This document shows positions 3,089-22,413 of a DNA stretch of 64,000 bases, piece after piece. The stretch is from Candidatus Saccharimonadia bacterium (GTDB taxonomy: Bacteria > Patescibacteriota > Saccharimonadia > UBA4664 > SCTI01): the NCBI GenBank assembly GCA_046597065.1, contig JBKJLI010000003.1:148436-212435 (forward strand), in the 5' to 3' direction. The first letter of the stretch is position 1. Each line of letters begins with the position of its first letter. The notes below the pieces were generated by a model. It had not been told where the DNA came from, ran no database searches, and was given only the letters and a program-made list of their open reading frames with translations. The translations under genes and the position numbers were made by a program.

Positions 3089-3304
3089 TTACTTGTCGGC
3101 CAACTCGTCAAAACCAGCTTGGTGTTTCGCAACAAACCCATTGGCCCATTCTTTGGTAGCAGCTAAATCGGGGGAGGTAGCGGTTGGCACAACATTAAAA
3201 ATCGGCTTGGACCGCTTAACGACTGTAAAACTCTCGCCGGCTTGTACGCGGCGAGTGATCTCTTCGGTATTGGTTCTAAGCTCTTTCATACTGATAATAG
3301 TCAC
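3089..3304 (-). CDS. phd: Phd/YefM-family antitoxin
   Basis: 71 aa, MTIISMKELRTNTEEITRRVQAGESFTVVKRSKPIFNVVP, which is a typical YefM/Phd N-terminal fold. It sits 6 nt upstream of doc on the same strand in antitoxin-then-toxin order. Confidence 0.65.
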   Translation of the reverse strand: MTIISMKELRTNTEEITRRVQAGESFTVVKRSKPIFNVVPTATSPDLAATKEWANGFVAKHQAGFDELADK

Positions 3305-4175: not shown

Positions 4176-4577
4176 CTAGCAGACCAGGCGCTTCATCGCA
4201 TTCAGGCTGGGTGCCTTTCTTGGCAGGCTGCCGTCGGCGTGTGCTCGCTGGCTAAGCCGGTCGTAGGCGATCTTCTGTGCATGATAGATCGCCCGCAGTT
4301 GCGGCGCAATGTTGTCTATAACCACTACTTGGTTATCGCGTGACTGGCGCTGGATGTGAACCTCTCGGCAGTACTGGTGTGCAGCCAGCCTTAGGGTGGC
4401 AAAGACATCACGCGGAGTACTCATCCTGGCGGGAGCGAGCGCTCGGTGGACTGGGGAAGTAGTAGTGGTATCGGTCTGCTGAACGACTGACCCAGTGGAA
4501 ACATCGGAGGGGCTTACGCCGCAGCCGGTCGCCACTAGGCAGGCGATACAGGCAGCCATTGCTGCGATCGTACGCAT
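4176..4577 (-). CDS. hypothetical lipoprotein (GC-rich)
   Basis: 133 aa. The N-terminus MRTIAAMAACIACLVATGCG carries a lipobox (LVATGC). It is markedly more GC-rich than the flanks. No recognisable domain. Confidence 0.45.
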   Translation of the reverse strand: MRTIAAMAACIACLVATGCGVSPSDVSTGSVVQQTDTTTTSPVHRALAPARMSTPRDVFATLRLAAHQYCREVHIQRQSRDNQVVVIDNIAPQLRAIYHAQKIAYDRLSQRAHADGSLPRKAPSLNAMKRLVC

Positions 4578-5179: not shown

Positions 5180-5293
5180 ATGGGTGATGAGCTCAGTGGA
5201 GGCGGTTCGGGATCCGCGACTGAGGGCGATGCGGCTGAAGAGGCTGCAACGCAGGCCGCAGAAGACGCGGACGTTGCCGAGAGCAACGCCTAG
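5180..5293 (+). CDS. small acidic Gly/Ala/Glu/Asp-rich peptide (37 aa)
   Basis: ATG preceded by a strong SD (aaaggaggtacgtcATG). It encodes MGDELSGGGSGSATEGDAAEEAATQAAEDADVAESNA and is followed directly by a GC hairpin plus T-tract. Confidence 0.4.
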   Translation: MGDELSGGGSGSATEGDAAEEAATQAAEDADVAESNA

Positions 5294-5303
5294 CGGCTGA
5301 ACT

Positions 5304-5335
5304 GGGACCCGGGGGTAACCCTGGGTCCCTTTATT
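5304..5335 (+). terminator. rho-independent terminator
   Basis: Stem gggaccc...gggtccc with an inner gggg/ccct extension and a gtaa loop, followed by tttatt. Confidence 0.5.
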
Positions 5336-5357
5336 AACTATAGGTTAGAATACATTC

Positions 5358-6650: not shown

Positions 6651-6811
6651 AATTTATTAGTCAATTCGTTAAAGTGATAGCTCTCTGCCAACAAGGTACG
6701 TATGCCCCTGCAACAAAAACTTGCTTTTTAACCAACCTTAGGGTATAAGTAACTTACGAACCATGCGGCCCAATCGGGTCGCACAAATCGAGCACCAGGA
6801 GGTGAGGAGTC

Positions 6812-7237
6812 GTGAGGCTTAAGAATATGTGGGGGCTCATCCTTGTGGTGACCCTCGTGATGATGCTTGGACTTGTACCAAGCGTGTCTCAGGCAAGGCT
6901 GGATCTGTTGCGCTCTCATGTGAGCGCCTCGAAGAAGGGCTCCAGCTGTAAGCATCCGTGGACTGCTCAATTCAGCGCGATTCTCGGCCAAGGTGAGGGC
7001 AACCTGAGCAAGATAGGGTTCAAGGTCCTCAAGCACCCGGCACCGGGTGATCCTGAGCGGATTGACTGGCACACCAAGCGGCCGCATCTGCTTATCTGTC
7101 GGGCTTACCTGATCACCTGGTCGGGCAAGCGGATCCCGATCAAGACCGGCCGCACCAAGGGCTTCTATACGGAGCACCAGGAGTACGGCAAGCAGTGGCC
7201 GTTCGCTGCTCTCAAAGTCGCAGCCAGGAACACCTAG
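6812..7237 (+). CDS. small secreted protein (GC-rich)
   Basis: GTG start with the SD ggaggtgagga upstream. Signal peptide MRLKNMWGLILVVTLVMMLGLVPSVSQA. The overlapping minus-strand ORF looks like Arg/Pro-rich antisense noise. Confidence 0.45.
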   Translation: MRLKNMWGLILVVTLVMMLGLVPSVSQARLDLLRSHVSASKKGSSCKHPWTAQFSAILGQGEGNLSKIGFKVLKHPAPGDPERIDWHTKRPHLLICRAYLITWSGKRIPIKTGRTKGFYTEHQEYGKQWPFAALKVAARNT

Positions 7238-7346
7238 CTCTTGACTGCGCGGCGCCTTCGGGCGCCGCAAAGCACTTATCTATGTGTTGTGAAACTACTT
7301 ATGGTCGTCTATGATGGGGGCAGATCATAAGTGGTGAATATTTGAC

Positions 7347-10300
7347 TTGAATCCGACGACACTCGCAAGTAGAGCACTCATTGCTGCCACCCTGCTGCTG
7401 CTGGCTGTGGGTCTGTCAAGCTCGGCCAATGCCTCAACAATTCGCAGGGACTGCGACACTCGTACCGTCGCCGCCAGCGTCGACTACAGCTTCTTCCCCT
7501 TTGGCTTTATCTGTCAGAATATCAACCCTAGCTCGCCTGTAAAATCGACCAGCGTCTACCTTGATGGCTACACCAACAACTATGCCTCGTCGCTCAATGG
7601 CTTGGACGGCAGCAGTGATGCCAAATACACCAACGTCAGCCCTGGTCAGACGTTGGCATTCAAAACTGGTTTCGCCAACTGGCGGCCACCGCGTGAGAAC
7701 AGCCCCGGCGGCCCCGGATCGACGGCCACTAGGGACATCTACGTTTGGGTGACGATGGATGCCAATGACTCGCTGTTTGATGATCCCAACCCCTCAAACT
7801 CGATCGGCAACCTCGGTACCAACTTTGGCACCGGGGGCTCATATACAACCTCGACCAACGGATCGATCCCGGTCAATGGCCAGCACCTTGACTGCCCCGG
7901 GGCACACGGCAGCCCAATCGTGATCGCGTATCCGAATGCCAACAACATCACCGGCAATACCGACCGCAGTCCTTATTGGAACTCCACTCACAATGGCGAC
8001 GGTAAGGTCGACTGCAGCAACGAAGGCCAGATGATCTACTGGAAGCTGTCGGGCGTCAGCAATAATCAAAGCCCAGACTTCAAGTTCGATGTAAAACTGC
8101 GTGGTACCTATCCACCGCCGGGGGACAGCGGCAAGATTTGCGTGCGCATGAACGTATCGGTTGAGTACGCTGGCGAGACTCAGCTAGTGGACAAGCTGGG
8201 GCACATGGCGATAAAAAGCAGCAAGGAGTGCTACTGGATTCGAACCTCGGTCGTTGAGGGGAATATCAAGAGCCACCCCTCGCTGGCAACCGGGAAGAAT
8301 CTCGAAGGCGTGCATGTTTACTACACCCGCAATCACTCATGTGACTACGCCGGTGCGTGGAATGTGGTCAAAACCGACGTAGACGGCAATTACAAGTTCT
8401 ACAATGCTTCGGGTGACCAATTCTGCGTCAGGCCCGAGGCGACGACTACAGCGACCGTACCGGGCGGGACGACTTACAACAGTCCCGAGCGGCTGAAGCA
8501 GGATTATAATGGCGCAAATTATGACTATGGGGGAGCGTCACCCGACGATGGCTCAGATGTTGTCAATCGCAACTACTTTTACAAACCGATCCCCGTCGCT
8601 CCAACCATCGATAAAGACAAGGGTGGCCGCGGCACAGTCATAGCGCCTGACGGCCGTACCGTCAACTGCACCGGCACAATCACGCCAGATCCATTATCTG
8701 TGTGTGACCCGGACACACTAAGGCCGGGCGACTCGGTTACATTCTACATCACGGTCAAAAACAGCATCGATGCCAACCAGAATGTCAACATTCAGGATTG
8801 GATCCCACTGAACATCGACCCCGCGTCGGTGAGTGCCGCCAACGTGTCTTTGGTTGAAGACGGCAATGGTCCGCTAAACTGGTTTGTTAGTGGGAGTCCT
8901 GATCCTTTCGCAGCCGTTCAACAGTACTCATATGGAAACCGGGACATAAGCACCAATTTCACGGGAGACTACAGTTCGGGATTCTCGAGCGGATCGGGCT
9001 CTTCTTTACCTCGCTTCAGTTTTACATTCAGTCGGCTGCCCGCTTACAGCGAGGTGTTGATTGAGTGGACCGGTACAGTCAAATCTGCCAACAACATTGG
9101 CGTATATCCGGGGTCCCCAAATGACTATCGCTATTGTCCGGGAGTGAACTCCACCACATATGACAACCCAAATCGCGTGCTAACCGAATGCGAAGATAGG
9201 GCAACCGGCTTGCAGGGTGTAAGTAATGCAGTTGAGGTTGAATCCCCAACGGGGGGGTTTATTAAAGGCTTCTCAAACATTACCTATAACCCCGTACCCT
9301 CCAGCTTTAATCAGGCAGCCAAGACTATCGGCTCTGGTCTTACGCCCGACGAAAATGGAAATATCATTATTGACCCCAATGACCCATCCACAGCCAGTAA
9401 TATGCCAATATCATCCACTTTTGGGAGAGATACCAACATGGGGCCGATACCCAACATGACCATTGACGACCAGGCGGGCCCAGCCGATCTTGACTCGCAT
9501 ATTATCAATATTGATCTCACCGGCAGTGGTGGCGCCAACTTAGTGGGTGCATCCAACCGAATTGTTAGATGGACTGGCCAAGACCTGCGTGGTAGTGGAG
9601 CCATCGATAGCAACACATTTACCTTTAGGGCCGGCGTTAACCCAGCTACGCCAATTGGGACTAAAATATATAACACCACCCGGGCCTGCGCGCCAAAATA
9701 CTGGGAGGCTGGGCACGCTCCATTCTGTATCGACACCAATAAAGTTGGTGTAATTGTGGCTAATATAATTAATCCCTATCTAGTGGGAGACCGCGGAGAT
9801 GTCCGGGCCGGGCAAACTTGCACGGCCGCTACTAGCAGTAAGGCGTACGGTCCGGTTGGGTCGAGTAACAACAAGGGCAACTACACCGTAACCGCCACCG
9901 GCTCTATCACTAACTTTGGCGCTGGGGTTGGTAAGCCAGAATATGGCGTTAACTGTCAGCCGGATCTAGTAGGCTCAGCCAATATACTTGCCACGACCCC
10001 TGGTAAGTTCAAAGCATTTAATACTTGGGTGCCAGTGGCTTCGCAGAGTCAGTACGACGGTAAGGTTGTTACATCCGGCACAATTGATATACCCGCTAAC
10101 ACAACGATTAAGGGTCGCTGGACGCTGTTTGTGGATGGTGATGTTCATATTCTGGGCAACCTGACTTACGACTATGGATCGGTCACATCATTAAACGGAA
10201 CACCATCATTTGGTATTATCGCGACAGGCAACATTTCTATTGATCCTAGCGCTACTCAGCTGAACGGCTATTTTTATGCCAGAGGTAAGATCAATACCTG

Positions 10301-10589
10301 CCAGAGAGCCGATGGCGCTACGCTAACAACTGGTCTCTCGGTGGCTGATTGTAGAAACCGCTTAGTTGTTAATGGTCTGTTAATGGCCAACGGACTGCAA
10401 TTCAACCGTACCTATGTGAATAAAACTACTTCGGGTAATGTTACTACGCAGATTATTGGAGATGACTTTTCTTCCGAGTACGCCAAAATGATTGGGCAAC
10501 TATATGCAGCGACGCCACCAGCATTTAGTACAGTTACTAAGACCTACAACCCGCCGCAGTACTTGCAAGAGGCGCCGGCCAGGTATTAA
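7347..10589 (+). CDS. large secreted surface protein (1080 aa, Gly/Asn/Thr/Ser/Asp-rich), function unknown
   Basis: Signal peptide MNPTTLASRALIAATLLLLAVGLSSSANAS. Long uninterrupted ORF in the GC-rich block. No recognisable catalytic motif and no LPxTG. Lies immediately upstream of pilM. Confidence 0.7.
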   Translation: MNPTTLASRALIAATLLLLAVGLSSSANASTIRRDCDTRTVAASVDYSFFPFGFICQNINPSSPVKSTSVYLDGYTNNYASSLNGLDGSSDAKYTNVSPGQTLAFKTGFANWRPPRENSPGGPGSTATRDIYVWVTMDANDSLFDDPNPSNSIGNLGTNFGTGGSYTTSTNGSIPVNGQHLDCPGAHGSPIVIAYPNANNITGNTDRSPYWNSTHNGDGKVDCSNEGQMIYWKLSGVSNNQSPDFKFDVKLRGTYPPPGDSGKICVRMNVSVEYAGETQLVDKLGHMAIKSSKECYWIRTSVVEGNIKSHPSLATGKNLEGVHVYYTRNHSCDYAGAWNVVKTDVDGNYKFYNASGDQFCVRPEATTTATVPGGTTYNSPERLKQDYNGANYDYGGASPDDGSDVVNRNYFYKPIPVAPTIDKDKGGRGTVIAPDGRTVNCTGTITPDPLSVCDPDTLRPGDSVTFYITVKNSIDANQNVNIQDWIPLNIDPASVSAANVSLVEDGNGPLNWFVSGSPDPFAAVQQYSYGNRDISTNFTGDYSSGFSSGSGSSLPRFSFTFSRLPAYSEVLIEWTGTVKSANNIGVYPGSPNDYRYCPGVNSTTYDNPNRVLTECEDRATGLQGVSNAVEVESPTGGFIKGFSNITYNPVPSSFNQAAKTIGSGLTPDENGNIIIDPNDPSTASNMPISSTFGRDTNMGPIPNMTIDDQAGPADLDSHIINIDLTGSGGANLVGASNRIVRWTGQDLRGSGAIDSNTFTFRAGVNPATPIGTKIYNTTRACAPKYWEAGHAPFCIDTNKVGVIVANIINPYLVGDRGDVRAGQTCTAATSSKAYGPVGSSNNKGNYTVTATGSITNFGAGVGKPEYGVNCQPDLVGSANILATTPGKFKAFNTWVPVASQSQYDGKVVTSGTIDIPANTTIKGRWTLFVDGDVHILGNLTYDYGSVTSLNGTPSFGIIATGNISIDPSATQLNGYFYARGKINTCQRADGATLTTGLSVADCRNRLVVNGLLMANGLQFNRTYVNKTTSGNVTTQIIGDDFSSEYAKMIGQLYAATPPAFSTVTKTYNPPQYLQEAPARY

Positions 10590-10631
10590 AGGGTTTTCAA
10601 GCATAACGGTTATGATAGTATTAGAGGTGAG

Positions 10632-11672
10632 ATGGGACTGTTCAATAAACAGGTAGAGTATTTTGGCATAGATATCGGCTCGGGCGGCATCCGACTGGTA
10701 CAGCTAAAGCGTGGCGGCGGGCGACCAGTCTTGGTTACCTATGGTCACGTGGCCACTCCTGCCGGTTTAACTACCAGCGACAGCCCCGGCGACATTAGTA
10801 AAGTCGCAGCAGTTGTAAAACAACTCGTAAAAGATGCCAGGGTTACCACAAAGCACGTGGTAGCCGGTTTGCCATCGGCCAAAGTTTTTGCCAGCATCAT
10901 GACAACTCCAGTTTTGGGTCACGATGAACTGGGTAAGGCCATTCACCTGCAGGCTGATCAATACATTCCCATGGCCATTAAAGACGTAAAGCTTGATTGG
11001 GTAGTGCTTGGCCCCGGCAAAACCCCTCAAGAACAAGAGGTTTTACTGGTGGCCGCTCCAAATACCGTGGCTCAAAAGTACTTAAGCATTATGGAGCAAG
11101 CCGAACTAGAGCTGATAGCCCTTGAGCCCAATGCCGTAGCTTTAGCTCGAGCCGTTGTGGCGCCTAATGATCTTGCGGTGTTGGTTATTGACATTGGCAG
11201 CATTACCACTGACATCACCATTGTGCAGCACAACCTACCTAAGTTAATTCGCTCGGTTAACGTTGGTGGAACTACCTTTATGAAATCGGTGGCCCAGAAC
11301 TTGGGTCTAGATGAAGCTCAAGCCGATCAGTTTACGCGCAAGTTTGGACTGACTCAAACCAAGCTAGAAGCTCAGGTTTACAAGGCCATTAAGCCCAGTC
11401 TTGATCAGTTAATTGGCGAAATCGATAAATCGGTTAAGTTTTATTCAACGCAGTATCCCGACATCAAGATGGAAAAGGTGATTCTAACCGGCGGCACTAC
11501 CAGCCTGCCAGAGCTTAACACCTACCTGTCGACCGCTACAGGCTTACCGGTTGAAATTGCCAACGCCTGGACTAAAATTGGCTATCCCGCGTCATTACAA
11601 GATACGCTAATGGGCCTATCAGTGCAGTACGGCGTATCGGCCGGCTTAGCTGAAAGGGACGTGCTGGTATGA
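10632..11672 (+). CDS. pilM: type IV pilus assembly protein PilM (actin-like ATPase fold)
   Basis: MGLFNKQVEYFGIDIGSGGIRLVQL, a typical PilM N-terminus. 346 aa. SD agaggtgag upstream. Confidence 0.85.
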   Translation: MGLFNKQVEYFGIDIGSGGIRLVQLKRGGGRPVLVTYGHVATPAGLTTSDSPGDISKVAAVVKQLVKDARVTTKHVVAGLPSAKVFASIMTTPVLGHDELGKAIHLQADQYIPMAIKDVKLDWVVLGPGKTPQEQEVLLVAAPNTVAQKYLSIMEQAELELIALEPNAVALARAVVAPNDLAVLVIDIGSITTDITIVQHNLPKLIRSVNVGGTTFMKSVAQNLGLDEAQADQFTRKFGLTQTKLEAQVYKAIKPSLDQLIGEIDKSVKFYSTQYPDIKMEKVILTGGTTSLPELNTYLSTATGLPVEIANAWTKIGYPASLQDTLMGLSVQYGVSAGLAERDVLV

Positions 11673-12259
11673 CCAACGCCCGCGTTAACCTAGCACCAGA
11701 GGTTTACCAAGCGTCGCAGCGGGCCAAGCAGGTTCGCCAGATTGCGATAGCCATTGGTTCGCTAATTGGCATCATTTGCATTGGGTTGGTAGTTACCTCG
11801 CTGGTAATTTTGGGTGGCCAAAAAGTCTTTATTAACTCTTTGAATGGCTCGATTAAAGATAAGCAGGCCAAGGTTAAGACCTTTAGTGACCTTCCTAAAG
11901 CTGCTACAGCCACCGCACACGCTGATACTTTGGCCGATTTAATTAAGCAACGAATATACCTGTCGCGCTTTTTTGACACCCTTCAGACCGCTACTCCTCA
12001 AGGTGTGGCCTTAAGTTCCGTTAGCTTAAACAGTGCCAACGTAGTTTCCTTAAACGTTAGCGCCAAAAGTTATGCCTTGGCCACCAAATACGCCAAGGCT
12101 TTAGAAGCCAGTAATTTAACCGTGGGCCCCGGGGCCTCGCCTTTGCAGCAGCCCAATTTTAGTAACGTGCAACTTTCTGGGGTAACCGATAGTGGTGGCG
12201 GTAGCATCGACTTTAAGCTAACCGCAACAATATCTAGTGAGGTGCAGAGTGGCCGTTAA
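11669..12259 (+). CDS. pilN: type IV pilus assembly protein PilN
   Basis: 196 aa. Short cytoplasmic N-terminus and a single TM helix (IAIAIGSLIGIICIGLVVTSLVILGG). Translationally coupled to pilM by a 4-nt overlap. Confidence 0.7.
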   Translation: MTNARVNLAPEVYQASQRAKQVRQIAIAIGSLIGIICIGLVVTSLVILGGQKVFINSLNGSIKDKQAKVKTFSDLPKAATATAHADTLADLIKQRIYLSRFFDTLQTATPQGVALSSVSLNSANVVSLNVSAKSYALATKYAKALEASNLTVGPGASPLQQPNFSNVQLSGVTDSGGGSIDFKLTATISSEVQSGR

Positions 12260-12908
12260 ATACAGCAAATCCGTAACTGGTATAAAAAAGCCGGCTCCTA
12301 GCAAAAAAGAGCTATCGGCAAATAGCTTTGCCGCTATGGTAGCGGTGGGTACCACCATAGCAGTGATCATAACCGGGTTTGCATTGAACTACTTGGTTGG
12401 CCAAGTGATTTTATACTCTAAGGTTGCGATAGCTAAACAAACCGCCGTAAATGATTTAACTCAAAAAATCGACAACGCTCCAAAGTTAATTGAAGCTTAC
12501 AATCAGCTGGGATCTCGCAAGGATTTAATTTTCCATGGCCTGCCAAATACCGCCGACTTTCCCGAAATTGTCTCAATAATCGATAGCATGTCGGCAGCCT
12601 CGGCCGTTAAAACCACCGCAGTCACCCCGGTAACAACCGTTATTGCTGGTGCTACGGCATCCACATCTAGCACTACGGCCACCCCTAACGCCGGCGGAGC
12701 CCAAACTACCCAGTTTAGTGTGTCTGTTACCGGCCAGTACGCCAAGGTATTAGACTTTATTAAGAACCTAGAAAAGTCGGCTCGCCCGATGCGGGTCACC
12801 GCCATCGATTTTAAGGGTACCGGCAACAGCATTTCCGCCGATATCCAAATCACCTCTTACTACCAGTCGCCGGTTGATATTAACGACAAAACCGAGGTAA
12901 TAAAATGA
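12237..12908 (+). CDS. pilO: type IV pilus assembly protein PilO-like
   Basis: 223 aa. N-terminal TM segment followed by a periplasmic/extracellular domain. Sits in the pilMNO position. Confidence 0.6.
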   Translation: MRCRVAVKYSKSVTGIKKPAPSKKELSANSFAAMVAVGTTIAVIITGFALNYLVGQVILYSKVAIAKQTAVNDLTQKIDNAPKLIEAYNQLGSRKDLIFHGLPNTADFPEIVSIIDSMSAASAVKTTAVTPVTTVIAGATASTSSTTATPNAGGAQTTQFSVSVTGQYAKVLDFIKNLEKSARPMRVTAIDFKGTGNSISADIQITSYYQSPVDINDKTEVIK

Positions 12909-13168
12909 AACCCAAAGAAATAACTCAGCTAATCGTCGCCATCGTGATTTTTGCAATTGCCGGCTTCTTAATTTATTCACAACTTGGGCCTAAGTCTGGC
13001 GGCAAGGATGGAAAAGGGGTATCGGTTGAAAAGGTAACCAAGATTCCTTCAGGTTTTAATGACCAGTCGTTGAGCGTGATCGGGGATAGTTCAAGAGTTC
13101 GTGACTTTTACTCACCACCCGATTTGGGTAGTGGCCTCGGCAATTCTCAGCCCTTCGGTACCAAGTAG
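12905..13168 (+). CDS. small single-pass membrane protein within the pilus operon
   Basis: 87 aa with the TM segment ITQLIVAIVIFAIAGFLIY. Translationally coupled to pilO. Confidence 0.45.
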   Translation: MKPKEITQLIVAIVIFAIAGFLIYSQLGPKSGGKDGKGVSVEKVTKIPSGFNDQSLSVIGDSSRVRDFYSPPDLGSGLGNSQPFGTK

Positions 13169-13180
13169 GATTTCAGCGCT

Positions 13181-14944
13181 ATGCTGAACCTTAAAAGTCA
13201 AAAAAGCATCGAAAAGATGCTACTCGACAAGAAGATTCTGGATAAGGCTCAGCTCGAGGAATATCGAGTGCGCTCAATCCAAAATAACGAACCGTTATTG
13301 GCCGTAATTCAGCAGGCAGGTATTTTAGATGAAGAGCAACTCACCCAGCTTTCTGCGGCGGCTAGTGGATTGCAGTATGTGAATTTAAGTAATGTCACAG
13401 TACCACCGGATCTGCTTGCGGCTGTTCCGCGCGATATAGCCGAAACTTACCAAGCGGTGGCCTTTGGCCGCACCGATGGGCGTTTGGCTGTGGCCATGGT
13501 AGATCCAACCAACGTTCAGGCTATCGACTTTATATCTCGCAAAACCGGAGAAACACTGGTAACCTATCTAGCTTCGCAGGGTAGCATCGAAAAGGTCATG
13601 CTGCAGTATACCGCCGACCTATCGGGCGATTTAAAACAGGCGATTCAAAGCGCAGAGTTGCCGGTTTCGCGTCGCGCCGAAGCTAGCAAAATGCAAAACT
13701 TGGTTCAGGACGCACCAATTACCCGCGCACTTAACACCATTCTGGAGTATGCCGTTAACAGCCGCGCCTCTGATGTACACATAGAGCCACGCGAAAAAGA
13801 GGTCTCGATTAGATTTCGTATCGATGGCGTGCTGCGCGAGGCCATGAAGCTACCCAAAACGATTGAACCGGCGCTTATTTCGCGCATCAAAATTCTTTCA
13901 AATCTAAAGATCGATGAACATCGCATTCCCCAAGATGGTGAGTTTACGGTGCACGCCGGTAAAAAAGATGTTGATTTACGTATCGCCATCGCCCCAATTA
14001 CTTGGGGTGAGCAGGTTGTAATTCGTTTGCTCGATAAAACCAACGTGCTCTTAACTCTAGAAAACCTTGGCTTTAAAGGCCGCGCCTTTCGCACAATTGT
14101 AGAAGGCATCCACACCCCGCACGGCATGACACTAGCTACCGGCCCCACCGGATCCGGTAAATCGACCACGCTCTATGCGGTGCTACAGGCTTTAAAAAAT
14201 GTAGCCGTAAATATTGTTACGCTCGAAGACCCAGTTGAGTACAAAATGGAGGGCATCAACCAAATTCAGGTTAATGCCGATGTTGGCCTGACCTTTGCCA
14301 GCGGTTTGCGCAGCATTTTGCGCCAAGACCCCAACATCATCATGGTGGGGGAGATTCGCGACGAAGAAACCGCTAATCTGGCCGTGCAGTCTGCCCTAAC
14401 CGGCCACGTGGTACTTTCTACCATTCACACCAACTCGGCCGCTGGCGTGCTACCACGCCTCTTAGATATGCATATCGAGCCTTTCTTGGTAGCCAGTACT
14501 GTTAACACCGTAATTGGCCAGCGCCTTGTGCGTCGAATTTGTGATAAATGTAATGAGCAGCGCCAAAGTACTGCCGCCGAAGCCAAGTCGATTCAAGAAA
14601 CTCTGGGTAAAATTTTACCGGCAAGTGAAGCCGATATAACCAAGGCCCGTGAAGACTTAGGCTTTGACACCTTGCCACTAGCCAGCCAAACCGCTTATAC
14701 TTTATACAAAGGTAAAGGATGCAAAGAGTGTACCGACGGGTACAAAGGTCGCATCGGAATATATGAGGTGTTTGGAATGAGCGACGGCATGGAGCAGTTA
14801 CTGGCGGCAAAGGCCACTACTTCGCATATTCAAGCGCAGGCATCAAAGCAGGGCATGGTTACCATGCGCCAAGACGGCTACTTAAAGGCTCTCAACGGGT
14901 TGACCACATTAGAAGAGGTTGCCCGTGTAGCCTCGGATTTTTAG
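13181..14944 (+). CDS. pilB: type IV pilus assembly ATPase PilB (GspE family)
   Basis: 587 aa. GspII_E N-domain, Walker A ATGPTGSGKSTTLYA, and the tetracysteine motif CDKC...CKEC. Confidence 0.9.
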   Translation: MLNLKSQKSIEKMLLDKKILDKAQLEEYRVRSIQNNEPLLAVIQQAGILDEEQLTQLSAAASGLQYVNLSNVTVPPDLLAAVPRDIAETYQAVAFGRTDGRLAVAMVDPTNVQAIDFISRKTGETLVTYLASQGSIEKVMLQYTADLSGDLKQAIQSAELPVSRRAEASKMQNLVQDAPITRALNTILEYAVNSRASDVHIEPREKEVSIRFRIDGVLREAMKLPKTIEPALISRIKILSNLKIDEHRIPQDGEFTVHAGKKDVDLRIAIAPITWGEQVVIRLLDKTNVLLTLENLGFKGRAFRTIVEGIHTPHGMTLATGPTGSGKSTTLYAVLQALKNVAVNIVTLEDPVEYKMEGINQIQVNADVGLTFASGLRSILRQDPNIIMVGEIRDEETANLAVQSALTGHVVLSTIHTNSAAGVLPRLLDMHIEPFLVASTVNTVIGQRLVRRICDKCNEQRQSTAAEAKSIQETLGKILPASEADITKAREDLGFDTLPLASQTAYTLYKGKGCKECTDGYKGRIGIYEVFGMSDGMEQLLAAKATTSHIQAQASKQGMVTMRQDGYLKALNGLTTLEEVARVASDF

Positions 14945-14951
14945 GAGAATC

Positions 14952-16022
14952 ATGGATAAAACCGGACTTAAAATTGAACTGTTACTAGAAGAGGTAATCA
15001 AGCATGATGCCTCCGACCTGCACTTACAAGTCGGCCTGCCACCCATGTTACGTATCGATGGCGCCTTAAAGCCGGTTGATGACGCCCCAGTCTTAAAAGA
15101 CACCGATACCGACAAGCTGATTCAGTCGGTACTAGATGACGACCAAAAGGCAGTACTGGTTAAAGACAAAGAGGTCGATTTTTCATTCAGCTTTGGTAAC
15201 TATGGCCGCTTTCGCGTTAACGCCTTTCATGAAAAGGGTAATATTGCCGCCGCTCTGCGTTTAATTCCATCAAAAATTCGCACCCTAACCGAGCTTGAAA
15301 TGCCCAAGGTCGTATCAACCTTTGCCGAGTACCCACGGGGTCTTGTACTAGTAACCGGCCCAACCGGTTCTGGTAAGTCCACCACTCTGGCGGCCATCAT
15401 CGACAAAATCAACACCGAACAGGCCCGACACATTATTACAATTGAAGACCCAATCGAGTATGCTCATCACTCTAAAAAGTCGATCGTGGTCCAGCGAGAG
15501 GTGCACTATGACACCTTTAGCTTTGGTGCCGCGCTGCGATCAAGCCTCCGCCAAGACCCAGATGTGGTGCTTATTGGCGAAATGCGCGACCTAGAAACCA
15601 TTTCGGCTGCCATAACGCTTGCTGAAACCGGCCACTTAGTGCTTGCAACCCTTCACACCAACTCGGCTGCTCAGTCGATCGACCGTATCATCGACGTCTT
15701 TCCTCCGCACCAACAACAACAGATTCGCATACAGGTGGCTGGCATGCTGCAGGCCATTTGTGCCCAGCGCTTGGTGCCAAAGATTGGCGGAGGTCGCATT
15801 GCCGCTTCTGAGATCTTAGTGGTAACACCGGCCGCCCGAAACATTATTCGCGAGGGCAAAACTCATCAGCTTGATTCGGTTATCCAAACCGGTGCCGATG
15901 ACGGCATGCAGAGTATGGATCGCACCCTAGTTGAACTGATCCATTCCGGAACCATCACTTACGACGAGGCCAAGAACTACGCCGTCGATATAGGCGAGCT
16001 CGACCGCCTAATGAGGGGATAG
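14952..16022 (+). CDS. pilT: twitching-motility retraction ATPase PilT
   Basis: 356 aa. Walker A VTGPTGSGKSTTLAA and the PilT-typical length and motifs (IEDPIEY, LIGEMRD). Confidence 0.9.
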   Translation: MDKTGLKIELLLEEVIKHDASDLHLQVGLPPMLRIDGALKPVDDAPVLKDTDTDKLIQSVLDDDQKAVLVKDKEVDFSFSFGNYGRFRVNAFHEKGNIAAALRLIPSKIRTLTELEMPKVVSTFAEYPRGLVLVTGPTGSGKSTTLAAIIDKINTEQARHIITIEDPIEYAHHSKKSIVVQREVHYDTFSFGAALRSSLRQDPDVVLIGEMRDLETISAAITLAETGHLVLATLHTNSAAQSIDRIIDVFPPHQQQQIRIQVAGMLQAICAQRLVPKIGGGRIAASEILVVTPAARNIIREGKTHQLDSVIQTGADDGMQSMDRTLVELIHSGTITYDEAKNYAVDIGELDRLMRG

Positions 16023-16031
16023 CACAGCGCC

Positions 16032-17258
16032 GTGATTGATTACGTATATAAAGCTAAGGACTTAACCTCGGGCCAGATTATCACGGCTGGGGTTAAGGCC
16101 GATAGCCCAGAGTCGGCAGCTAAGGTGTTAGCCAAGCAGAATCTATTTGCCATTGATATTCAAGAAAAAAGTGACGGCGGCATACTTTCGAGAGTAGGCC
16201 TTAAGGGGCGTGTTACATCTAAGGAACGAGTGCTTTTTACTCGTCAGCTATCCACCCTCATTAACGCCGGTCTGCCCTTAGCCCGCGCGCTCCGTACAGT
16301 CCAAGATCAAATCAAAGGACAGACCTTAAATAACATCATTGGTGAGGTGGTGGCAGCGGTAGAGGGCGGCTCGTCATTGTCGAACGCTTTTGGCGTGCAC
16401 CCCAAGGTATTTAATGAGATCTACGTGGCTTTGGTAGCCGCTGGCGAGACCTCCGGTACACTTGATAAAGCTTTATTGCGGCTGGCCAACCAACAAGAAA
16501 AAGATGCCGAGATTATTACCAAAATTCGCGGGGCGCTCATCTATCCGGCAATCGTTCTGGTTTTAATCGTTGTCGTGGTAGGGATTATGCTGGTATCGGT
16601 TGTGCCTCAAGTTTCAAAACTATATAAAGACCTGGGCAAAAGTTTGCCATTCTTAACCCAGCTTCTTGTCAGCACATCAGATTTCTTAATTCATTTCTGG
16701 TGGCTAGCCATTTTAGGGCTGGTGGCTGCCGCATATGGCGCCAAAATTCTATATGCTCGCGAAAGTACCAAGCTGGAGCTGGACCGGCTGAAACTAAAGG
16801 CCCCTCTGTTCGGCGCAATTTTTGCCAAGGTCTACATGGCTCGTTTTTCACGCACCATGAACACCCTGATCGCTAGCGGCATTCCGATGCTCGATGCCCT
16901 GGCTACGGTTAAGCGGGCCATCAATAACCGGGTGGTAGAGGCGGATCTAGAAAAGGCCATCAGCCAGGTTAGGGGAGGCACCGCATTATCTGAGTCTCTT
17001 GGAGATAAAACCAGCTTTTTAGTACTAGTACCCCAGATGGTAAAGATTGGTGAAGAGTCCGGCGCCTTAGATGACATGCTCGATCGCACAGCACTGTACT
17101 ACGAGGCAGAGGTAGATGAAGCCATTAAGAACATTTCTACTACCATCGAACCAGTTATGATGGTAGTTTTGGGCGTAATTGTGGCCTTTGTGCTTGGGGC
17201 GATTCTGTACCCGATTTACAGCTTAGTCGGCAATGGCGGAGCCTCCAACATAAAATAA
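16032..17258 (+). CDS. pilC: type IV pilus platform protein PilC (GspF family)
   Basis: 408 aa with two GspF repeats and three TM segments. Confidence 0.85.
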   Translation: MIDYVYKAKDLTSGQIITAGVKADSPESAAKVLAKQNLFAIDIQEKSDGGILSRVGLKGRVTSKERVLFTRQLSTLINAGLPLARALRTVQDQIKGQTLNNIIGEVVAAVEGGSSLSNAFGVHPKVFNEIYVALVAAGETSGTLDKALLRLANQQEKDAEIITKIRGALIYPAIVLVLIVVVVGIMLVSVVPQVSKLYKDLGKSLPFLTQLLVSTSDFLIHFWWLAILGLVAAAYGAKILYARESTKLELDRLKLKAPLFGAIFAKVYMARFSRTMNTLIASGIPMLDALATVKRAINNRVVEADLEKAISQVRGGTALSESLGDKTSFLVLVPQMVKIGEESGALDDMLDRTALYYEAEVDEAIKNISTTIEPVMMVVLGVIVAFVLGAILYPIYSLVGNGGASNIK

Positions 17259-17336: not shown

Positions 17337-17750
17337 ATGTCTAAACTAAACAACAAAAAAGGTTTTACCCTGATCGAAATCGTCATTGTACTGGCGATCG
17401 CGGCATTGGTATTAGCTGCCGTATTGTTGGCTGTATCAGGAGCCCAGAAGGCCCGTCGTGATACCCAGCGTAAGAATGATGCCGGCTCTTATGCCGCGGC
17501 GCTTGAGCAGTATGCTTCAAACACTAGTGGGGACTACCCAGCCACAGGCGTAGCTCTCGCCTCTACATATTTTGACCGAAAAGATCCCGGCAGTGGTTCC
17601 GTATACGCGGTTGTAAGTGCTGCGCCATCAGTTGGGCAAATTCAGTATGTTCTCGGCGTTGACTGTGCGGCCGCCGCTAGTGGTCGCTACTATGCATTGA
17701 CTGTTGGGTTAGAGCAGGGCGGTAGCGCCTGTTTCAGTAACCACAAGTAA
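17337..17750 (+). CDS. pilA: type IV major pilin (prepilin with class III signal)
   Basis: MSKLNNKKGFTLIEIVIVLAIAALVLAAV, a G|FTLIE prepilin-peptidase site with Glu at +5. 137 aa with a C-terminal Cys pair. Confidence 0.85.
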   Translation: MSKLNNKKGFTLIEIVIVLAIAALVLAAVLLAVSGAQKARRDTQRKNDAGSYAAALEQYASNTSGDYPATGVALASTYFDRKDPGSGSVYAVVSAAPSVGQIQYVLGVDCAAAASGRYYALTVGLEQGGSACFSNHK

Positions 17751-17780
17751 GTCACAAGGACACACTTTCTTAACCAGATC

Positions 17781-17806
17781 AGCCGCCTTCGGGCGGCTTT
17801 TGGTTT
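17781..17806 (+). terminator. rho-independent terminator after pilA
   Basis: agccgccttcgggcggct hairpin followed by tttggttt. Confidence 0.65.
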
Positions 17807-17820
17807 GATATAATGCGCTT

Positions 17821-18621
17821 ATGTTTTTAATCGGCCTGGGTGCCTTTATCGTCGGCCTGTTCATTGGCAGCTTCCTGTTTGTGGTCGTCGAACGGCTGCA
17901 TGCCGGACGCAGTTTTGTGCATGGCCGCTCCAAGTGCGACCACTGCAAACACCAGTTGGGGGCCGCAGACCTAGTGCCACTATTTAGCTGGCTGTTTCAG
18001 CGCGGTAAGTGTAGTCATTGTAAAAAGCCCATCTCGGCCCATTATCCGTTAGTTGAGTTACTCACAGGATCAGTATTTGCTTTGACTGTTACTACGCATC
18101 TACCATCAACAACCGCGCAGCTTTTGTCGCTTTTACTGTGGCTGTATGTTGGCGGAAGCTTTATCGTCCTCTCGGTTTATGACCTTAAATGGTATCTGTT
18201 GCCAGATAAAGTGTTGCTACCTCTAATCGCTCCAGCATTGGCCATAGCAGTCTTAACCGCGGCCTCGGCTGGCTCTTGGCAGGTGATTATCGGTCCAGTG
18301 GAGGCTGCGCTGGCCTTCGGCGGTGCATTTTACGCGGTTGCTGCCGTATCTGGAGGCCGCTGGATGGGTGGGGGAGATATTAAGCTGGCTTTCATAATGG
18401 GGTTGCTGCTGGGGCTTAAAAAGACGCTCCTGGCCATGTTTATTGCCTTTAACTCCGCAGCCATAATAGGGCTGCTCTTGATTGCATTGGGCCGTAAAAG
18501 CCGTAAAGATATGATTCCGTTTGGGCCATTCTTGATTTTAGGTACGATGGTGGCCTATTGGTACGGCGGATCTATCATTAACTGGTATATACAAGTTAGT
18601 GGTTTATACCTGTTGCAGTAA
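17821..18621 (+). CDS. pilD: prepilin peptidase PilD (A24 family)
   Basis: 266 aa. N-terminal zinc motif CDHC...CSHC, a polytopic membrane protein with a DUF/A24 core. Confidence 0.85.
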   Translation: MFLIGLGAFIVGLFIGSFLFVVVERLHAGRSFVHGRSKCDHCKHQLGAADLVPLFSWLFQRGKCSHCKKPISAHYPLVELLTGSVFALTVTTHLPSTTAQLLSLLLWLYVGGSFIVLSVYDLKWYLLPDKVLLPLIAPALAIAVLTAASAGSWQVIIGPVEAALAFGGAFYAVAAVSGGRWMGGGDIKLAFIMGLLLGLKKTLLAMFIAFNSAAIIGLLLIALGRKSRKDMIPFGPFLILGTMVAYWYGGSIINWYIQVSGLYLLQ

Positions 18622-18648
18622 TTACGCTTATGCTACAATTAACCTGAT

Positions 18649-20109
18649 ATGATGCGGCGTTTAACAGCTAAAGGCTTCACGCTAATAGAGGTGGTTATTG
18701 TAATGGCCATCGCTACGTTGTTGGCCGCTAGCTACATTGCCGGACAGGGCGCGTTACAGCAGTCAACCTCGTTTACTGGATCGATGGATCAGTTACGCAA
18801 TCAGTTAACCGGCATCCAGAATGAGGCCAGCCAGGTGGTGTCTAGTGGGGATGCCTCACATGGTAGTGTCGGCAAGTCCAATCAGGTTGTATTTGGAAAG
18901 CTTGTTGAGTTTTCGACCGCTAATCCAGACAAAATGCATGTTTATACACTAATTGGCGACTCGACCGATTTAACTGGCAGCCAGTTGTTAGCTTGCGACA
19001 ATGGCACGGTCGCACTAAAAAACGGCCTGCGCTACACCGATACTAGCAACAAGGCAGTAATTTTTCAGGGCAAGCCCAATCATATGTATACGGCCCCGAC
19101 TGGGTATGACTTAACCAATGTACCGACTGGGCTAAGCCCGCTCCCTGGCGGTTCCTGCAACGGCATCCTAGCGATGTATAGTGCTGGCGACGGCGACGGC
19201 GACGGCGACGGCGGAGGCGGCGGTGGTGGCGGAGGCGGCGGTGGTGGCGCTCCTATCGCAACCTGTGGTGGAGATACATCGTTTCACGTTGGGGTGCCTT
19301 CAGCCGAGCAGGCCGATACTTGCTACAAAAATACTCCTACCGAGGGTCTTATCGGTAAGTATTACACCAACGCCACCTTTAATGGCAGCCCAAAAACTAC
19401 CATCATTCAGTCAAATATCACAATCAGCGGGATAGGTGACCCAAGCTTTTTACCTACACTTCATTCGCTTGCTAAAAATCCGGCCGCAAATGTTTCGGTG
19501 AGCTGGGAGGGTGAGATTAGGGTAAACCCTTATGGCTATCAACTTTGCACCGAATCTGATGATGGAACAACCTTAACTGTGGGGGGTACGGTAATAACAA
19601 CTGATCGCGCAACTGCATCTCACCCCGCTACCGTTGCGTGTGGCACCACTTCGGCGATGGCCACTTTAAACACTTGGCAGTCTATCAAAATTGAATATGC
19701 TAATCTTGCCTGGAATGGTGGAGAGGCTGACGCTAAATTCAAACTATTCTGGAAAAATAATGGCAATCCTTTCCCGGTGTCCTTCTCGGATCTTAGAACT
19801 ATCGAAACAAAACCGGTCACTTACGTTGTTGCATTAAAGCAGAACGGATGGCAGCGCTTGAACTCGGTTGTCCAGAATATACTATCGCACCCGCTAGCGG
19901 CCATCAGCCAGTTCTTTAGCCCGGCGGCCGTAGCTAATGTTGGTTTTCTCGGGTGCGGATCAAGCTGTTTACTTGACCCCAACAACTATTACCCAAGTAA
20001 TAGTACTTATACCGCGGACCTTGAAGTCAAGTTTGATGACCAAGGTAGTCATACTGGCAGTATCAAGTTTTTACCATCCACCAACACCATTACCCGGATC
20101 TCTAACTAA
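18649..20109 (+). CDS. minor pilin with PA14-like domain and Gly/Asp low-complexity linker (putative pilus tip adhesin)
   Basis: Prepilin N-terminus MMRRLTAKGFTLIEVVIVMAIATLL. Linker GDGDGDGDGGGGGGGGGGGG. Downstream block GLIGKYYTNATFNG...VSWEGEIRVNPYGYQLCTESDDGTTLTVGGTVI...FKLFWKNNG resembles the PA14 signature. Confidence 0.7.
   Translation: MMRRLTAKGFTLIEVVIVMAIATLLAASYIAGQGALQQSTSFTGSMDQLRNQLTGIQNEASQVVSSGDASHGSVGKSNQVVFGKLVEFSTANPDKMHVYTLIGDSTDLTGSQLLACDNGTVALKNGLRYTDTSNKAVIFQGKPNHMYTAPTGYDLTNVPTGLSPLPGGSCNGILAMYSAGDGDGDGDGGGGGGGGGGGGGAPIATCGGDTSFHVGVPSAEQADTCYKNTPTEGLIGKYYTNATFNGSPKTTIIQSNITISGIGDPSFLPTLHSLAKNPAANVSVSWEGEIRVNPYGYQLCTESDDGTTLTVGGTVITTDRATASHPATVACGTTSAMATLNTWQSIKIEYANLAWNGGEADAKFKLFWKNNGNPFPVSFSDLRTIETKPVTYVVALKQNGWQRLNSVVQNILSHPLAAISQFFSPAAVANVGFLGCGSSCLLDPNNYYPSNSTYTADLEVKFDDQGSHTGSIKFLPSTNTITRISN
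19183..19257 (+). repeat. simple-sequence tract (GGCGAC)4 followed by a (GGN)~14 run inside the minor pilin gene
   Basis: ggcgacggcgacggcgacggcgacggcggaggcggcggtggtggcggaggcggcggtggtggc, read directly. Confidence 0.8.
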
Positions 20110-20654
20110 TGCGGCACTTGCGCCGGCAGAGTGGTGACACCTTGGTAGAGGTGGTAATGGCTGCCGCAATTCTGTCAGTGGTAATGGCCACTTCTTTTAA
20201 CATTGCAAACCTGTCATTTCGGTTGGGGGTACAAGCCCGAGAGCGCAGCGAGGCGGTGCGCTTGGTGCAAGAACAGGCCGAACGCTTGCATCTATACCGC
20301 GACAACTTGGCAAAGACTTATGCGGATGTACCTACTACAAAGATCTTCACTAACGCCTTTTTTGCTAACTGTGCGACCGAATGCTGGTTCGACCCCAATA
20401 CAGCAGTCAACGCCGCCACACCTCCTACGGATTGCAGCGCTCCGGGAGCCTGTAAGCAGGATCGCTACCATGTCGGGATTAAATTGGCAGGTCCTTTAAC
20501 CGGTGCAGATTCGATACAACCCATCATTAACGTTAGCTGGCAGAGCATTCTGGGTGGCGTGGCTAACAACAGCCAAGTCAAGCTTTTCTTAGTCGACAAC
20601 CGTGCGATCCAACCACGTGATTGTAGCGTCGCGGGGCAGGCCGAATGTCAGTAA
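20109..20654 (+). CDS. minor pilin / pseudopilin
   Basis: 181 aa. N-terminus ...RQSGDTLVEVVMAAAILSVVMATSF is prepilin-like with Glu+5. Overlaps the preceding stop. Confidence 0.6.
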   Translation: MRHLRRQSGDTLVEVVMAAAILSVVMATSFNIANLSFRLGVQARERSEAVRLVQEQAERLHLYRDNLAKTYADVPTTKIFTNAFFANCATECWFDPNTAVNAATPPTDCSAPGACKQDRYHVGIKLAGPLTGADSIQPIINVSWQSILGGVANNSQVKLFLVDNRAIQPRDCSVAGQAECQ

Positions 20655-21370
20655 TTAGCTCAAACCAGCGTGGCTTCACGTTTGTAGAGCTAATTATTGC
20701 CATGGCGATCTTTAGCTTTATCCTGGTAATTATTACTAGTGGCATAATTCGGTTATTTAACATCTATCAGTCTGGTATTGGCATTCGCGCCACTCAGCAG
20801 AATGCCCGCAGCATTGCCGACGAAATAAGCAATCGGGCTCGTAGCTCGGTAGGATACACCTTCAACCAGGCAACCAGTACAGTGGTTGGGGCTTCAGGAA
20901 ATGTTAATCTTCATCAAGACAGGCTTTGTTTTTTCGATAGTAGTACAGAAGTCTTTAACCCAATAACCGGCATTAAAGATCTAAAAGTGACCGGTGAGAT
21001 GCTTTACACCGTACAGAATCCAGGGGGGTTGGGGGACAAGGTCTTTGAGTTGCATCGCGCTAGAATCAAACCGGCAATTATTACAGTCGGTAACTGCCCA
21101 GCACCCGGTGGCGCCTTAACTACAGATGACCAACTGTTGTCTACGGCGGATGTGTCGATTGCAAGTTTTGGTATAAACCGAGGCTCCGCCGCAAGTAATC
21201 CCCAAATTGTTGATTTTGACTTAGCGGTTGCCGCTCGTACTGCATTAGACGTACTGTCAATTGAGTATAGTGAGGGCGACGCACTGGGTTGTCACGGTAC
21301 CGATAGCGGGAATCAGTATTGCTCGGTTACACACATCCACTCATCGGCTGCCCTAAGGGAGACGCCATGA
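20645..21370 (+). CDS. minor pilin / pseudopilin
   Basis: 241 aa, MSVISSNQRGFTFVELIIAMAIFSFILVII with the G|FTFVE class III signal. Confidence 0.7.
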   Translation: MSVISSNQRGFTFVELIIAMAIFSFILVIITSGIIRLFNIYQSGIGIRATQQNARSIADEISNRARSSVGYTFNQATSTVVGASGNVNLHQDRLCFFDSSTEVFNPITGIKDLKVTGEMLYTVQNPGGLGDKVFELHRARIKPAIITVGNCPAPGGALTTDDQLLSTADVSIASFGINRGSAASNPQIVDFDLAVAARTALDVLSIEYSEGDALGCHGTDSGNQYCSVTHIHSSAALRETP

Positions 21371-22413
21371 TGATGACTAGACCCGCTAATAACCAGGGAG
21401 GAGCGGTATCATTAATTGCGGTTACTCTGACTTCGCTGCTGACCTTAATAATCACCATAGCCTTAGTAGGAATGATGCTGGGGGAGCTTCGCCAATCAAT
21501 TGATGCTGAAAATGGAGTTAAAGCCTACTACGCGGCCGAGTCTGGGGCGGAGGAGGCTATTTACGGGATTAAGGATCAGCTAGCTCATAACGTTACTATT
21601 GGAGACCTAAACCAGGAGTGTGATAACGTTATTTCCAACGGTGGGCCCAGTTACCAGTACTTTAACTCGACGCAAAGTGGCATTAATGATACCGCGTCGG
21701 GCGTGCAAATTACCTGTCGAGCAATTCATACCAATGGCTCTCCTGTTGGTATTCTGAATAAGGACGAGCCAACCAGTTTTGACCTTTTTGGGCATAACGT
21801 CGCGAGCATCCAGGTGAATTGGGACACAAATGATCCCGCGGCGGGGGGTACTATTCCAGATCTCGCTTTTACATTGGCAGCCTATCCAACCGGCAATGTG
21901 GCTGCAGTTGATAGCGTTCCAACCAAGTCGATACTATTACAGCCCTGTTCGCCAGCATCTGGCACTTGTGTCAATCGTACCTCGTCGCCGTACCTATTTT
22001 CACTACCGGGTTATGCCGTTGCAACTTACTGCAACACTGGATCAGCGCCATCGGCTACCAGTTATCGTTGTCATGCTGAGATAAAAAATATTTCCGGCAT
22101 AGGTAACTTGGTTGTACCGGGTAATTTTGCTGTACTTCGTCTTCGCCCTCAAGACTTTGGGGCCAGTTACAGCTTAAAGATAATTGATGACAGCAACAAT
22201 AGCGTTAATGTCCGGCTGCAGCAGGCCACCGTCGACGTCACGGCCAAGGTAGGCGATAGCTTTAGGCGGATTCGCCAACAGATTGATGTGCGCTCAGGAG
22301 TCTACGCTGGCTTAGATGTGATATCGTCTCAGACCGATGTGTGCAAAGACTTTGACTACAACTTCTCGCCATCATATGAGAGTGTTACTAAAAAGAACTG
22401 TGCGCTGCAATAA
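21319..22413 (+). CDS. PilX-like minor pilin (N-terminal hydrophobic segment)
   Basis: Probable true start at the ATGATGATG around 21367 (MMMTRPANNQGGAVSLIAVTLTSLLTLIITIALVGMML). Last gene of the pilus block. Confidence 0.55.
   Translation: MLGYTHPLIGCPKGDAMMMTRPANNQGGAVSLIAVTLTSLLTLIITIALVGMMLGELRQSIDAENGVKAYYAAESGAEEAIYGIKDQLAHNVTIGDLNQECDNVISNGGPSYQYFNSTQSGINDTASGVQITCRAIHTNGSPVGILNKDEPTSFDLFGHNVASIQVNWDTNDPAAGGTIPDLAFTLAAYPTGNVAAVDSVPTKSILLQPCSPASGTCVNRTSSPYLFSLPGYAVATYCNTGSAPSATSYRCHAEIKNISGIGNLVVPGNFAVLRLRPQDFGASYSLKIIDDSNNSVNVRLQQATVDVTAKVGDSFRRIRQQIDVRSGVYAGLDVISSQTDVCKDFDYNFSPSYESVTKKNCALQ

Follow-up and report, generated by a model that had tools for sequence, protein, structure and literature searches.

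Why should two secreted proteins encoded immediately ahead of a type IV pilus operon differ in base composition from their surroundings, and what might they do there? The question arises in a 64-kb stretch of contig JBKJLI010000003.1 (hereafter the window), in which a 141-residue open reading frame (ORF-S, 6812..7237, plus strand) and a 1080-residue one (ORF-L, 7347..10589, plus strand) precede pilM. An initial annotation had taken both for a compositionally foreign block, either a horizontally acquired surface or adhesion module or a cargo of the pilus. Most of that observation can be accounted for: a GC signal exists, but it covers less than was described and recurs in relatives, and the large gene is native. 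On balance, we lean towards reading ORF-L as a vertically inherited, pilus-associated, host-facing adhesin, and ORF-S as a separate, lineage-restricted unit with a conserved, gene-specific GC content at third codon positions (GC3). Two things of interest are left: an adhesin-like family, previously undescribed and linked to the pilus operon, and, beside it, a small, long-lived island of codon bias.

Both ORFs are real as first described: the shorter has a signal peptide, and the longer is rich in Gly, Asn and Thr and predicted to be secreted. ORF-L carries a classical signal peptidase I signal peptide, ending in LLLLAVGLSSSANA before the cleavage site with S after it, and consists of 10.4% G, 9.4% T, 9.3% S and 8.7% N. 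Its 18 cysteines fall into nine neighbouring pairs, which fits the expectation for an extracellular protein. It heads the type IV pilus operon, its stop codon lying 42 nt ahead of pilM (10632), just where the initial annotation had placed it. From PilM matches and gene order, the window comes from a Saccharibacteria-like genome: the best species-representative matches of its PilM are uncultured Candidatus Saccharibacteria (46-47% identity), and its order of EF-P, TlyA and YchF (minus strand) followed by pilM-pilN-pilO-small gene-pilB-pilT-pilC is that tabulated for the T4P1 locus of Southlakia epibionticum ML1, SEML1_0100-0110 (PMC10633639).

ORF-L belongs to a sizeable family that keeps a fixed place in the genome. 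An exhaustive HMMER search with ORF-L returned 478 cluster representatives at E <= 1e-3, 21 of them at <= 1e-30. Other searches yielded far less: in a word-indexed protein search ORF-L and ORF-S each matched only themselves and one relative, and repeating it with a 28-sequence alignment gave 3 matches, presumably because low-complexity words swamp the candidate list; a scan of genome contigs found no match to ORF-L and, with PilM, only distant representatives without ORF-L. We retrieved the flanking DNA of 14 relatives; at 12 loci it extended far enough for a verdict (L002, L009, L010, L012, L013, L015, L016, L017, L018, L019 and L020, plus L014, a second contig carrying the same genes as L013). 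In every one of the 12, most of them Saccharibacteria-like, pilM is immediately preceded by a family member on its own strand, as in the window, with gaps of 40-170 nt, even though PilM is anywhere from 39 to 90% identical to that of the window. The order pilM-pilN-pilO-(~85 aa)-pilB-pilT-pilC follows as far as each contig reaches. Upstream, EF-P, TlyA and YchF stand in the window's order in L002, L009, L010 and L013 and are rearranged in L016. This strictly conserved synteny supports the earlier suggestion that the protein is associated with the pilus. In two distant loci, two paralogues stand in tandem upstream of pilM (L012, 6549-11626; L017, 1-5852), so the family is able to duplicate locally. 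A hidden Markov model (HMM) of its C-terminal domain finds exactly one copy in the window (E 3.8e-73).

Within this fixed setting the protein itself changes quickly. Its identity to the window sequence is 61% in L002, 34% in L013, 31% in L010 and 26% in L009, against 90, 86, 75 and 73%, respectively, for PilM; by these alignments, ORF-L diverges much faster than the pilus machinery. Conservation in the family is strongest in residues 800-1080, with other motifs along the full length; in the alignments, the best-conserved block falls within the final ~250 residues.

The initial annotation saw no recognizable motif in ORF-L, and at the level of Pfam and NCBIfam this stands, as nothing exceeds threshold; a DUF11 match (PF01345/TIGR01451) at residues 453-498 reaches 17.1 bits against cut-offs of 24.6 (Pfam) and 24 (NCBIfam). 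Weak DUF11 matches recur in 5 of 28 relatives, and relatives also give weak matches to DUF7927, CarboxypepD_reg and SdrD_B. It does not stand for the family, which has both a conserved C-terminal domain and a terminal motif. An AlphaFold2 model built on 28 family sequences is of medium quality (mean predicted local distance difference test score, pLDDT, 69.8) and all-beta, with confident blocks at about residues 300-380, 460-590, 600-710, 740-810 and 880-1020. Residues ~300-810 (8244..9776) are predicted to form a stalk of immunoglobulin (Ig)-like, CnaB or prealbumin-like beta-sandwich domains, and tandem CnaA/CnaB Ig-like domains, a type found in Gram-positive pilins and adhesins, were found in the model. 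The structure prediction thus adds an Ig-like stalk and, beyond it, a beta-solenoid-like C-terminal domain, and the stalk lends support to the idea of a surface or adhesion protein.

The conserved C-terminal domain (residues ~872-1022; 9960..10412) carries the motifs RWTLFVDGDVHI..PSFGIIATGNISIDPSATQLNGYFYA..INTC..LVVNG..FNRT. Its predicted solenoid fold is assigned by elimination, the aligned region of the fold matches not having been reported. A profile of the domain has no significant match among PDB sequences, and DUF7305 (PF23981) gives weak matches to 3 of 16 C-terminal segments (best E 0.018), the window's segment not being one of them. After the domain comes a conserved tail (10464..10589; ...QLYAATPPAFS...YLQEAPARY-stop). 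Across the tails of ~150 members the very C-terminus reads ...TPPGFSDL...E.xP[PR]x[YFL], without a hydrophobic anchor; P1057 is invariant and P1058 nearly so in the 28-sequence alignment, and both are invariant in a 7-sequence one. Residues 1063-1080 have pLDDT < 50 in the monomer model. No LPXTG-type motif, hydrophobic segment or basic tail was found at the end of ORF-L, which closes with ...PPQYLQEAPARY, and the family's tails are alike in this. ORF-L also has no N_methyl match, that is, no class III signal peptide with a G/FxxxE N-methylation motif, whereas the operon's pilins have one. It thus shows the features by which we define the family: the C-terminal domain, a terminal ...P[PR]x[YFL] tail, a Sec signal and a place directly upstream of pilM.

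The closest functional parallels are PilY1 and PilC, the type IVa tip-associated adhesins of Pseudomonas, Neisseria and Myxococcus. Like them, ORF-L is a large, ~1000-residue non-pilin with an ordinary Sec signal, encoded in a pilus cluster, and it combines a conserved C-terminal domain with an N-terminal region that varies, an arrangement that would suit a protein that both docks and adheres. Unlike them, it has a beta-solenoid-like C-terminal domain and an Ig-like body, and it is encoded before pilM rather than among minor pilin genes. Neither ORF-L nor any of 28 relatives matches the Neisseria_PilC/PilY1 domain of Pfam, and the ORF-L model contains no beta-propeller. To our knowledge, the conserved terminal tail motif is not a feature of PilY1 either. 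As the defining features of PilY1 are absent, ORF-L is not a member of the PilY1/PilC family.

Other comparisons are looser. ORF-L differs from sortase-assembled pilins and from the fibrillar adhesins known as microbial surface components recognizing adhesive matrix molecules (SpaD, BcpA, RrgB, SdrD, AgI/II) in having no LPXTG, C-terminal hydrophobic segment or pilin motif, in ending ...EAPARY and in being linked to a type IV rather than a sortase pilus operon. Its likeness to the right-handed beta-solenoid of ice-binding-type proteins (DUF3494) is one of fold only, uninformative on function and without a Pfam sequence match, and its aligned region was not reported. PilX2 of Nanosynbacter lyticus TM7x has been proposed as the adhesin of a second type IV pilus (T4P-2), a PilT-less system; it is pilin-like with a C-terminal beta-propeller (PMC11623550). 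Both PilX2 and ORF-L are candidate pilus-associated, host-binding proteins of Saccharibacteria, but ORF-L is a non-pilin beside a PilT-containing operon of the T4P-1 type.

Like other Patescibacteria, Saccharibacteria live attached to bacterial hosts, and the molecules by which they recognize those hosts are largely unknown. Attachment of cultivated Saccharibacteria to their hosts requires, or is driven by, type IV pili (PMC10633639, PMC11623550, PMC9894109). ORF-L is a concrete candidate for host specificity in environmental members because it is linked to the pilus operon, is predicted to lie outside the cell, is built like a fibrillar adhesin and evolves several times faster than the machinery. 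Its family comprises uncharacterized, Sec-secreted proteins of ~0.5-1.6 kaa (thousand residues), encoded directly upstream of pilM in Saccharibacteria-type genomes, with a putative architecture of signal peptide, variable disulfide-rich N-terminus, Ig-like stalk, conserved beta-solenoid-like domain and short terminal tail. We envisage that the protein would be exported by Sec and form its disulfides, that the C-terminal solenoid and tail would dock to the pilus system, either at the minor-pilin tip complex or at the extracytoplasmic part of PilN/PilO, and that the variable N-terminal end would project outward and bind the host-cell surface. In that case ORF-L could be an adhesin linked to the pilus, or could determine host specificity, as a functional analogue of PilY1/PilC made from different folds. 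A bolder version, which we put forward tentatively as possible rather than probable, is that the family is an undescribed, modular and quickly diversifying host-recognition accessory of the Saccharibacterial pilus, with a new docking module (the beta-solenoid-like domain plus the ...PPxΦ or PRY tail) and an N-terminus that sets the host bacterium.

Several points weigh against reading ORF-L as a host-facing adhesin of the pilus. Its suggested function is read from synteny and predicted fold. The presumed binding end, the N-terminal ~230 residues, is poorly modelled, and hhalign finds no relation between the C-terminal profile and the operon's 486- and 364-residue proteins. In S. epibionticum ML1, pilM (SEML1_0104) comes next after YchF (SEML1_0103), with no ORF-L between them (PMC10633639). 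ORF-L is thus not part of every such pilus, and the gene seems to be missing from this position in cultivated oral Saccharibacteria. In two GTDB representatives of Saccharibacteria (L004 and L005), FtsK and a RodZ-like gene lie upstream of pilM instead. Finally, the raised GC3 in the 5' part of ORF-L, described below, is specific to the window's lineage and unaccounted for by this reading.

The best-surviving alternative, though we think it unlikely, gives ORF-L a structural role in the pilus machine, as a collar or conduit in the extracytoplasmic space that would guide the fibre through the cell wall or surface layer (S-layer) of single-membrane bacteria that have no PilQ secretin. The strictly conserved position directly before pilMNO and the conserved C-terminal module would suit such a part, as would the finding that neither PilQ nor PilP was seen in the window's pilus locus with Pfam, in keeping with bacteria of the candidate phyla radiation lacking PilQ (PMC6744442). 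Yet machine parts normally evolve slowly, and ORF-L is the fastest-diverging gene of its locus, varying widely in length (~480-1600 residues) and in N-terminal architecture; its stalk-like run of Ig domains is typical of fibrillar adhesins. S. epibionticum, moreover, has a functional and essential T4P-1 (PMC10633639) without the gene at the corresponding locus. Rapid divergence together with this absence makes a collar less likely.

The second alternative bears on the composition with which the question began. GC is indeed uneven: against 0.497 for the whole window, the highest-GC 2.4-kb segment begins at ~6800 and reaches 0.551 (mean 0.497, standard deviation 0.016). ORF-S has a GC content of 0.582 and a GC3 of 0.746, compared with a mean GC3 of 0.522 (standard deviation 0.058) over 52 long ORFs, and its Karlin codon-usage distance of 0.65 is the largest among 54 ORFs; none of 500 size-matched chunks of other genes reaches its distance or its GC3. 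ORF-L is raised mildly overall (GC 0.524, GC3 0.584) and is a compositional mosaic. Codons 1-480 (7347..8786), which encode the signal peptide, an N-terminal region that is rich in Cys and poorly modelled, and the first beta-sandwich, have a GC3 of 0.68 and a distance of 0.387 against a null of 0.266±0.024, neither being reached by any of 500 chunks, whereas codons 481-1080 are typical (GC3 0.51, distance 0.225). The shift is limited to third positions, GC1 and GC2 being within or near the normal range. The initial annotation had called all of positions 6700-10600 strikingly GC-rich; the windowed GC and codon-usage calculation it proposed bears this out for ORF-S and the first 480 codons of ORF-L, so that the real block spans ~6.8-8.8 kb, and only ORF-S deserves the adverb. 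The window also has a second-highest GC region at ~37400-40400 (2.4-kb GC 0.5425 at ~37.8 kb), covering ORFs 37617-39356 and 39359-40432.

Recent horizontal acquisition from a GC-richer donor, for example by recombination with a higher-GC Saccharibacterium or a host actinobacterium, could apply only to the 6.8-8.8 kb stretch, that is, to ORF-S and the 5' part of ORF-L, and we consider it improbable. Natural competence has been reported in Saccharibacteria (PMC10633639), and the codon usage of both segments lies outside all 500 size-matched samples. The 5' excess of ORF-L is peculiar to this lineage: the L002 homologue has raised GC3 in only about its first 120 codons, those of L013, L009 and L010 show no 5' elevation, and at synonymous third positions of codons 250-500 the window has G or C where L002 has A or T 56 times, with 21 in reverse. 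The interval between YchF and ORF-L also differs between genomes. The gene, however, is syntenic in all 12 informative loci, its homologues have an ordinary or low GC3 where measured (L002 0.52, L013 0.43, L009 0.50, L010 0.55), and the protein encoded by the GC-rich half matches L002 at least as well (amino-acid identity 0.64-0.67) as the remainder does (0.56-0.63). Nor does the surrounding DNA look mobile: the closest tRNA sits at 29.4 kb, a search for flanking repeats was negative, and the sole integrase-family gene, a tyrosine recombinase at 22452-23414, lies beyond the pilin genes and is not adjacent. No donor homologue was found in 5.8 G proteins or among phages, plasmids and viral contigs, and ORF-S itself has no match in the latter three. 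The claim of horizontal acquisition therefore fails for the 1080-residue gene.

For ORF-S, the evidence lies in its persistence. It has one clear homologue, 45% identical and at the same position in L002 and L003; in L013 a 143-residue positional counterpart shares its signal-peptide and GSSC features but gives no BLASTP match at E <= 1e-3. A GC-rich lipoprotein gene (4176..4577, minus strand; 133 residues, lipobox ..LVATGC, GC 0.597, GC3 0.649) behaves likewise: it is 34-37% identical to copies in L002 and L013, the latter supported by BLASTP. Neither gene is patchy, both occurring in L002 and having counterparts in L013. GC3 is 0.75 in the window, 0.87 in L002 and 0.65 in L013 for ORF-S, and 0.65, 0.81 and 0.74 for the lipoprotein gene, against backgrounds of ~0.5-0.6. 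The direction of the bias in ORF-S is thus shared by the two closest relatives, although its value is not.

This holds despite synonymous differences between the window and L002 that are saturated in every gene (proportion of synonymous differences 0.72-0.84), a saturation that also leaves no reliable ratio of nonsynonymous to synonymous rates. An old single transfer should mostly have drifted to the genomic GC3, yet the L002 copy of ORF-S stands at 0.87. The GC3 anomaly is thus a maintained, gene-specific property or the result of repeated replacement, not a fresh scar. More speculatively, GC3 could be held high across such divergence if GC-biased conversion is still at work, or if these genes exchange repeatedly with GC-rich DNA of the host. 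Structured RNA was rejected as a cause of the GC-richness (fold z-score -0.71, and Rfam matches all sub-threshold). In L009, small secreted ORFs at 5791-6318 and 6472-7398, with GC3 of 0.83 and 0.65, lie at the corresponding spot ahead of the ORF-L homologue; hhalign gives them no significant relation to ORF-S (probabilities 0.2% and 33%). Small secreted genes of high GC3 may therefore have settled upstream of ORF-L more than once. A local GC anomaly need not, then, signal recent gene transfer, since this one persists between lineages with saturated synonymous sites.

The remaining alternative, that ORF-L is a general surface or S-layer-type protein adjacent to pilM through shared regulation or history, or a cargo exported with the help of the pilus system, can draw on its predicted secretion, its Gly/Thr/Ser/Asn-rich, all-beta and fast-evolving sequence and the operon-encoded proteins that some type IV pilus systems secrete, such as TcpF of Vibrio cholerae, but we regard it as very doubtful, because 18 cysteines in nine pairs are atypical of S-layer proteins, Sec export is enough where there is no outer membrane to cross, and synteny kept while PilM identity ranges from 39 to 90% is difficult to account for unless the genes are functionally linked; nothing specifically supports the earlier notion of a pilus-secreted substrate.

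The sequence between ORF-L and pilM also speaks for a pilus-associated role. The ORF-L/pilM spacer (10590..10631, 42 nt) contains a ribosome-binding site (RBS; AGAGGTGAG) and a TATGAT, and no terminator was found in it. It is nearly identical in three genomes (window 10590-10631, L002 13797-13837, L013 11211-11252), which, given saturated synonymous sites, suggests a conserved regulatory or translational element. Because the two genes are joined by a conserved, terminator-free spacer, ORF-L is probably transcribed with pilM, although pilM may also have an internal promoter. ORF-S, by contrast, is probably its own transcription unit: it has its own strong RBS (AGGAGGTGAGGAG) and, just past its stop codon, a terminator-like hairpin (7249..7268, plus strand; GCGGCGCC-TTCG-GGCGCCGC), and a promoter-like element (7287..7315, plus strand; TTGTGA-17-TATGAT) lies ahead of ORF-L. 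The hairpin, called from sequence and folding, is a perfect 8-bp GC stem without a U-tract; it is kept in L002, and L013 has a different strong hairpin instead. The promoter-like element is a match to consensus from a consensus scan, and L002 has the same sequence.

ORF-S is predicted to be a small, Sec-secreted beta-sandwich protein with two conserved cysteines, its signal peptide running from MRLK through WGLILVVTLVMMLGLV to PSVSQA, with R after the cleavage site. Its low-confidence model (pLDDT 63) matches jelly-roll or carbohydrate-binding-module-like folds, and these only generically. An antisense 180-residue ORF (6728-7270, minus strand) was rejected as a real gene; GC3 periodicity, RBS, signal peptide and conserved motifs all lie in the plus frame.

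Downstream of ORF-L, Pfam identifies the assembly machinery pilM, pilN, pilO, an 87-residue gene, pilB, pilT and pilC (10632..17258, plus strand). The 87-residue, single-pass protein (12905-13168, plus strand), encoded between pilO and pilB, is kept in the related loci long enough to show it and is 50-61% identical in the close ones; it is the counterpart of the small essential S. epibionticum gene SEML1_0107 and may be an unnamed machine component. Next, at 17337..22413 (plus strand), come a 137-residue ORF, the prepilin peptidase PilD, three larger pilins (486, 181 and 241 residues) and a 364-residue protein. The 137-residue ORF (17337-17750) is likely the major pilin, as it has an N-terminal KKGFTLIE prepilin-type motif and an N_methyl pilin stands at the same position in L013.

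Upstream, a Fic-domain gene (129 residues) and a preceding 71-residue antitoxin-like gene (2693-3304, minus strand) come next after YchF; L002 has kept the pair, and L013, L009 and L010 lack it. In L002 and L013, ORF-S and the lipoprotein gene are direct neighbours, head-to-head and divergently transcribed, so the 2.2 kb between them in the window (4578-6811), an unknown region plus an M16 peptidase gene, reflect an insertion in the window's lineage or a deletion in the other two. The M16 gene (5358-6650) has a GC content of 0.449 and an HxxEH motif. Within 4578-5357 lies a very acidic 37-residue ORF (MGDELSGGGSGSATEGDAAEEAATQAAEDADVAESNA; 5180-5293, plus strand) with a strong RBS (AAAGGAGG), followed directly 3' by a hairpin resembling an intrinsic terminator, with an 11-bp stem and a T-tract (5304-5329); the rest of that interval is without a convincing ORF. 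Secreted, matrixin-like genes with a weak Peptidase_M10 match (HExxH) occur at 3445-4104 (plus strand) in the window, at 8108-9346 in L002 and at 5585-6809 in L013; the gene is single in the window and duplicated in the other two, and it is GC-poor in all three genomes (0.38-0.43), a deviation in the opposite direction to that of the neighbouring small genes.

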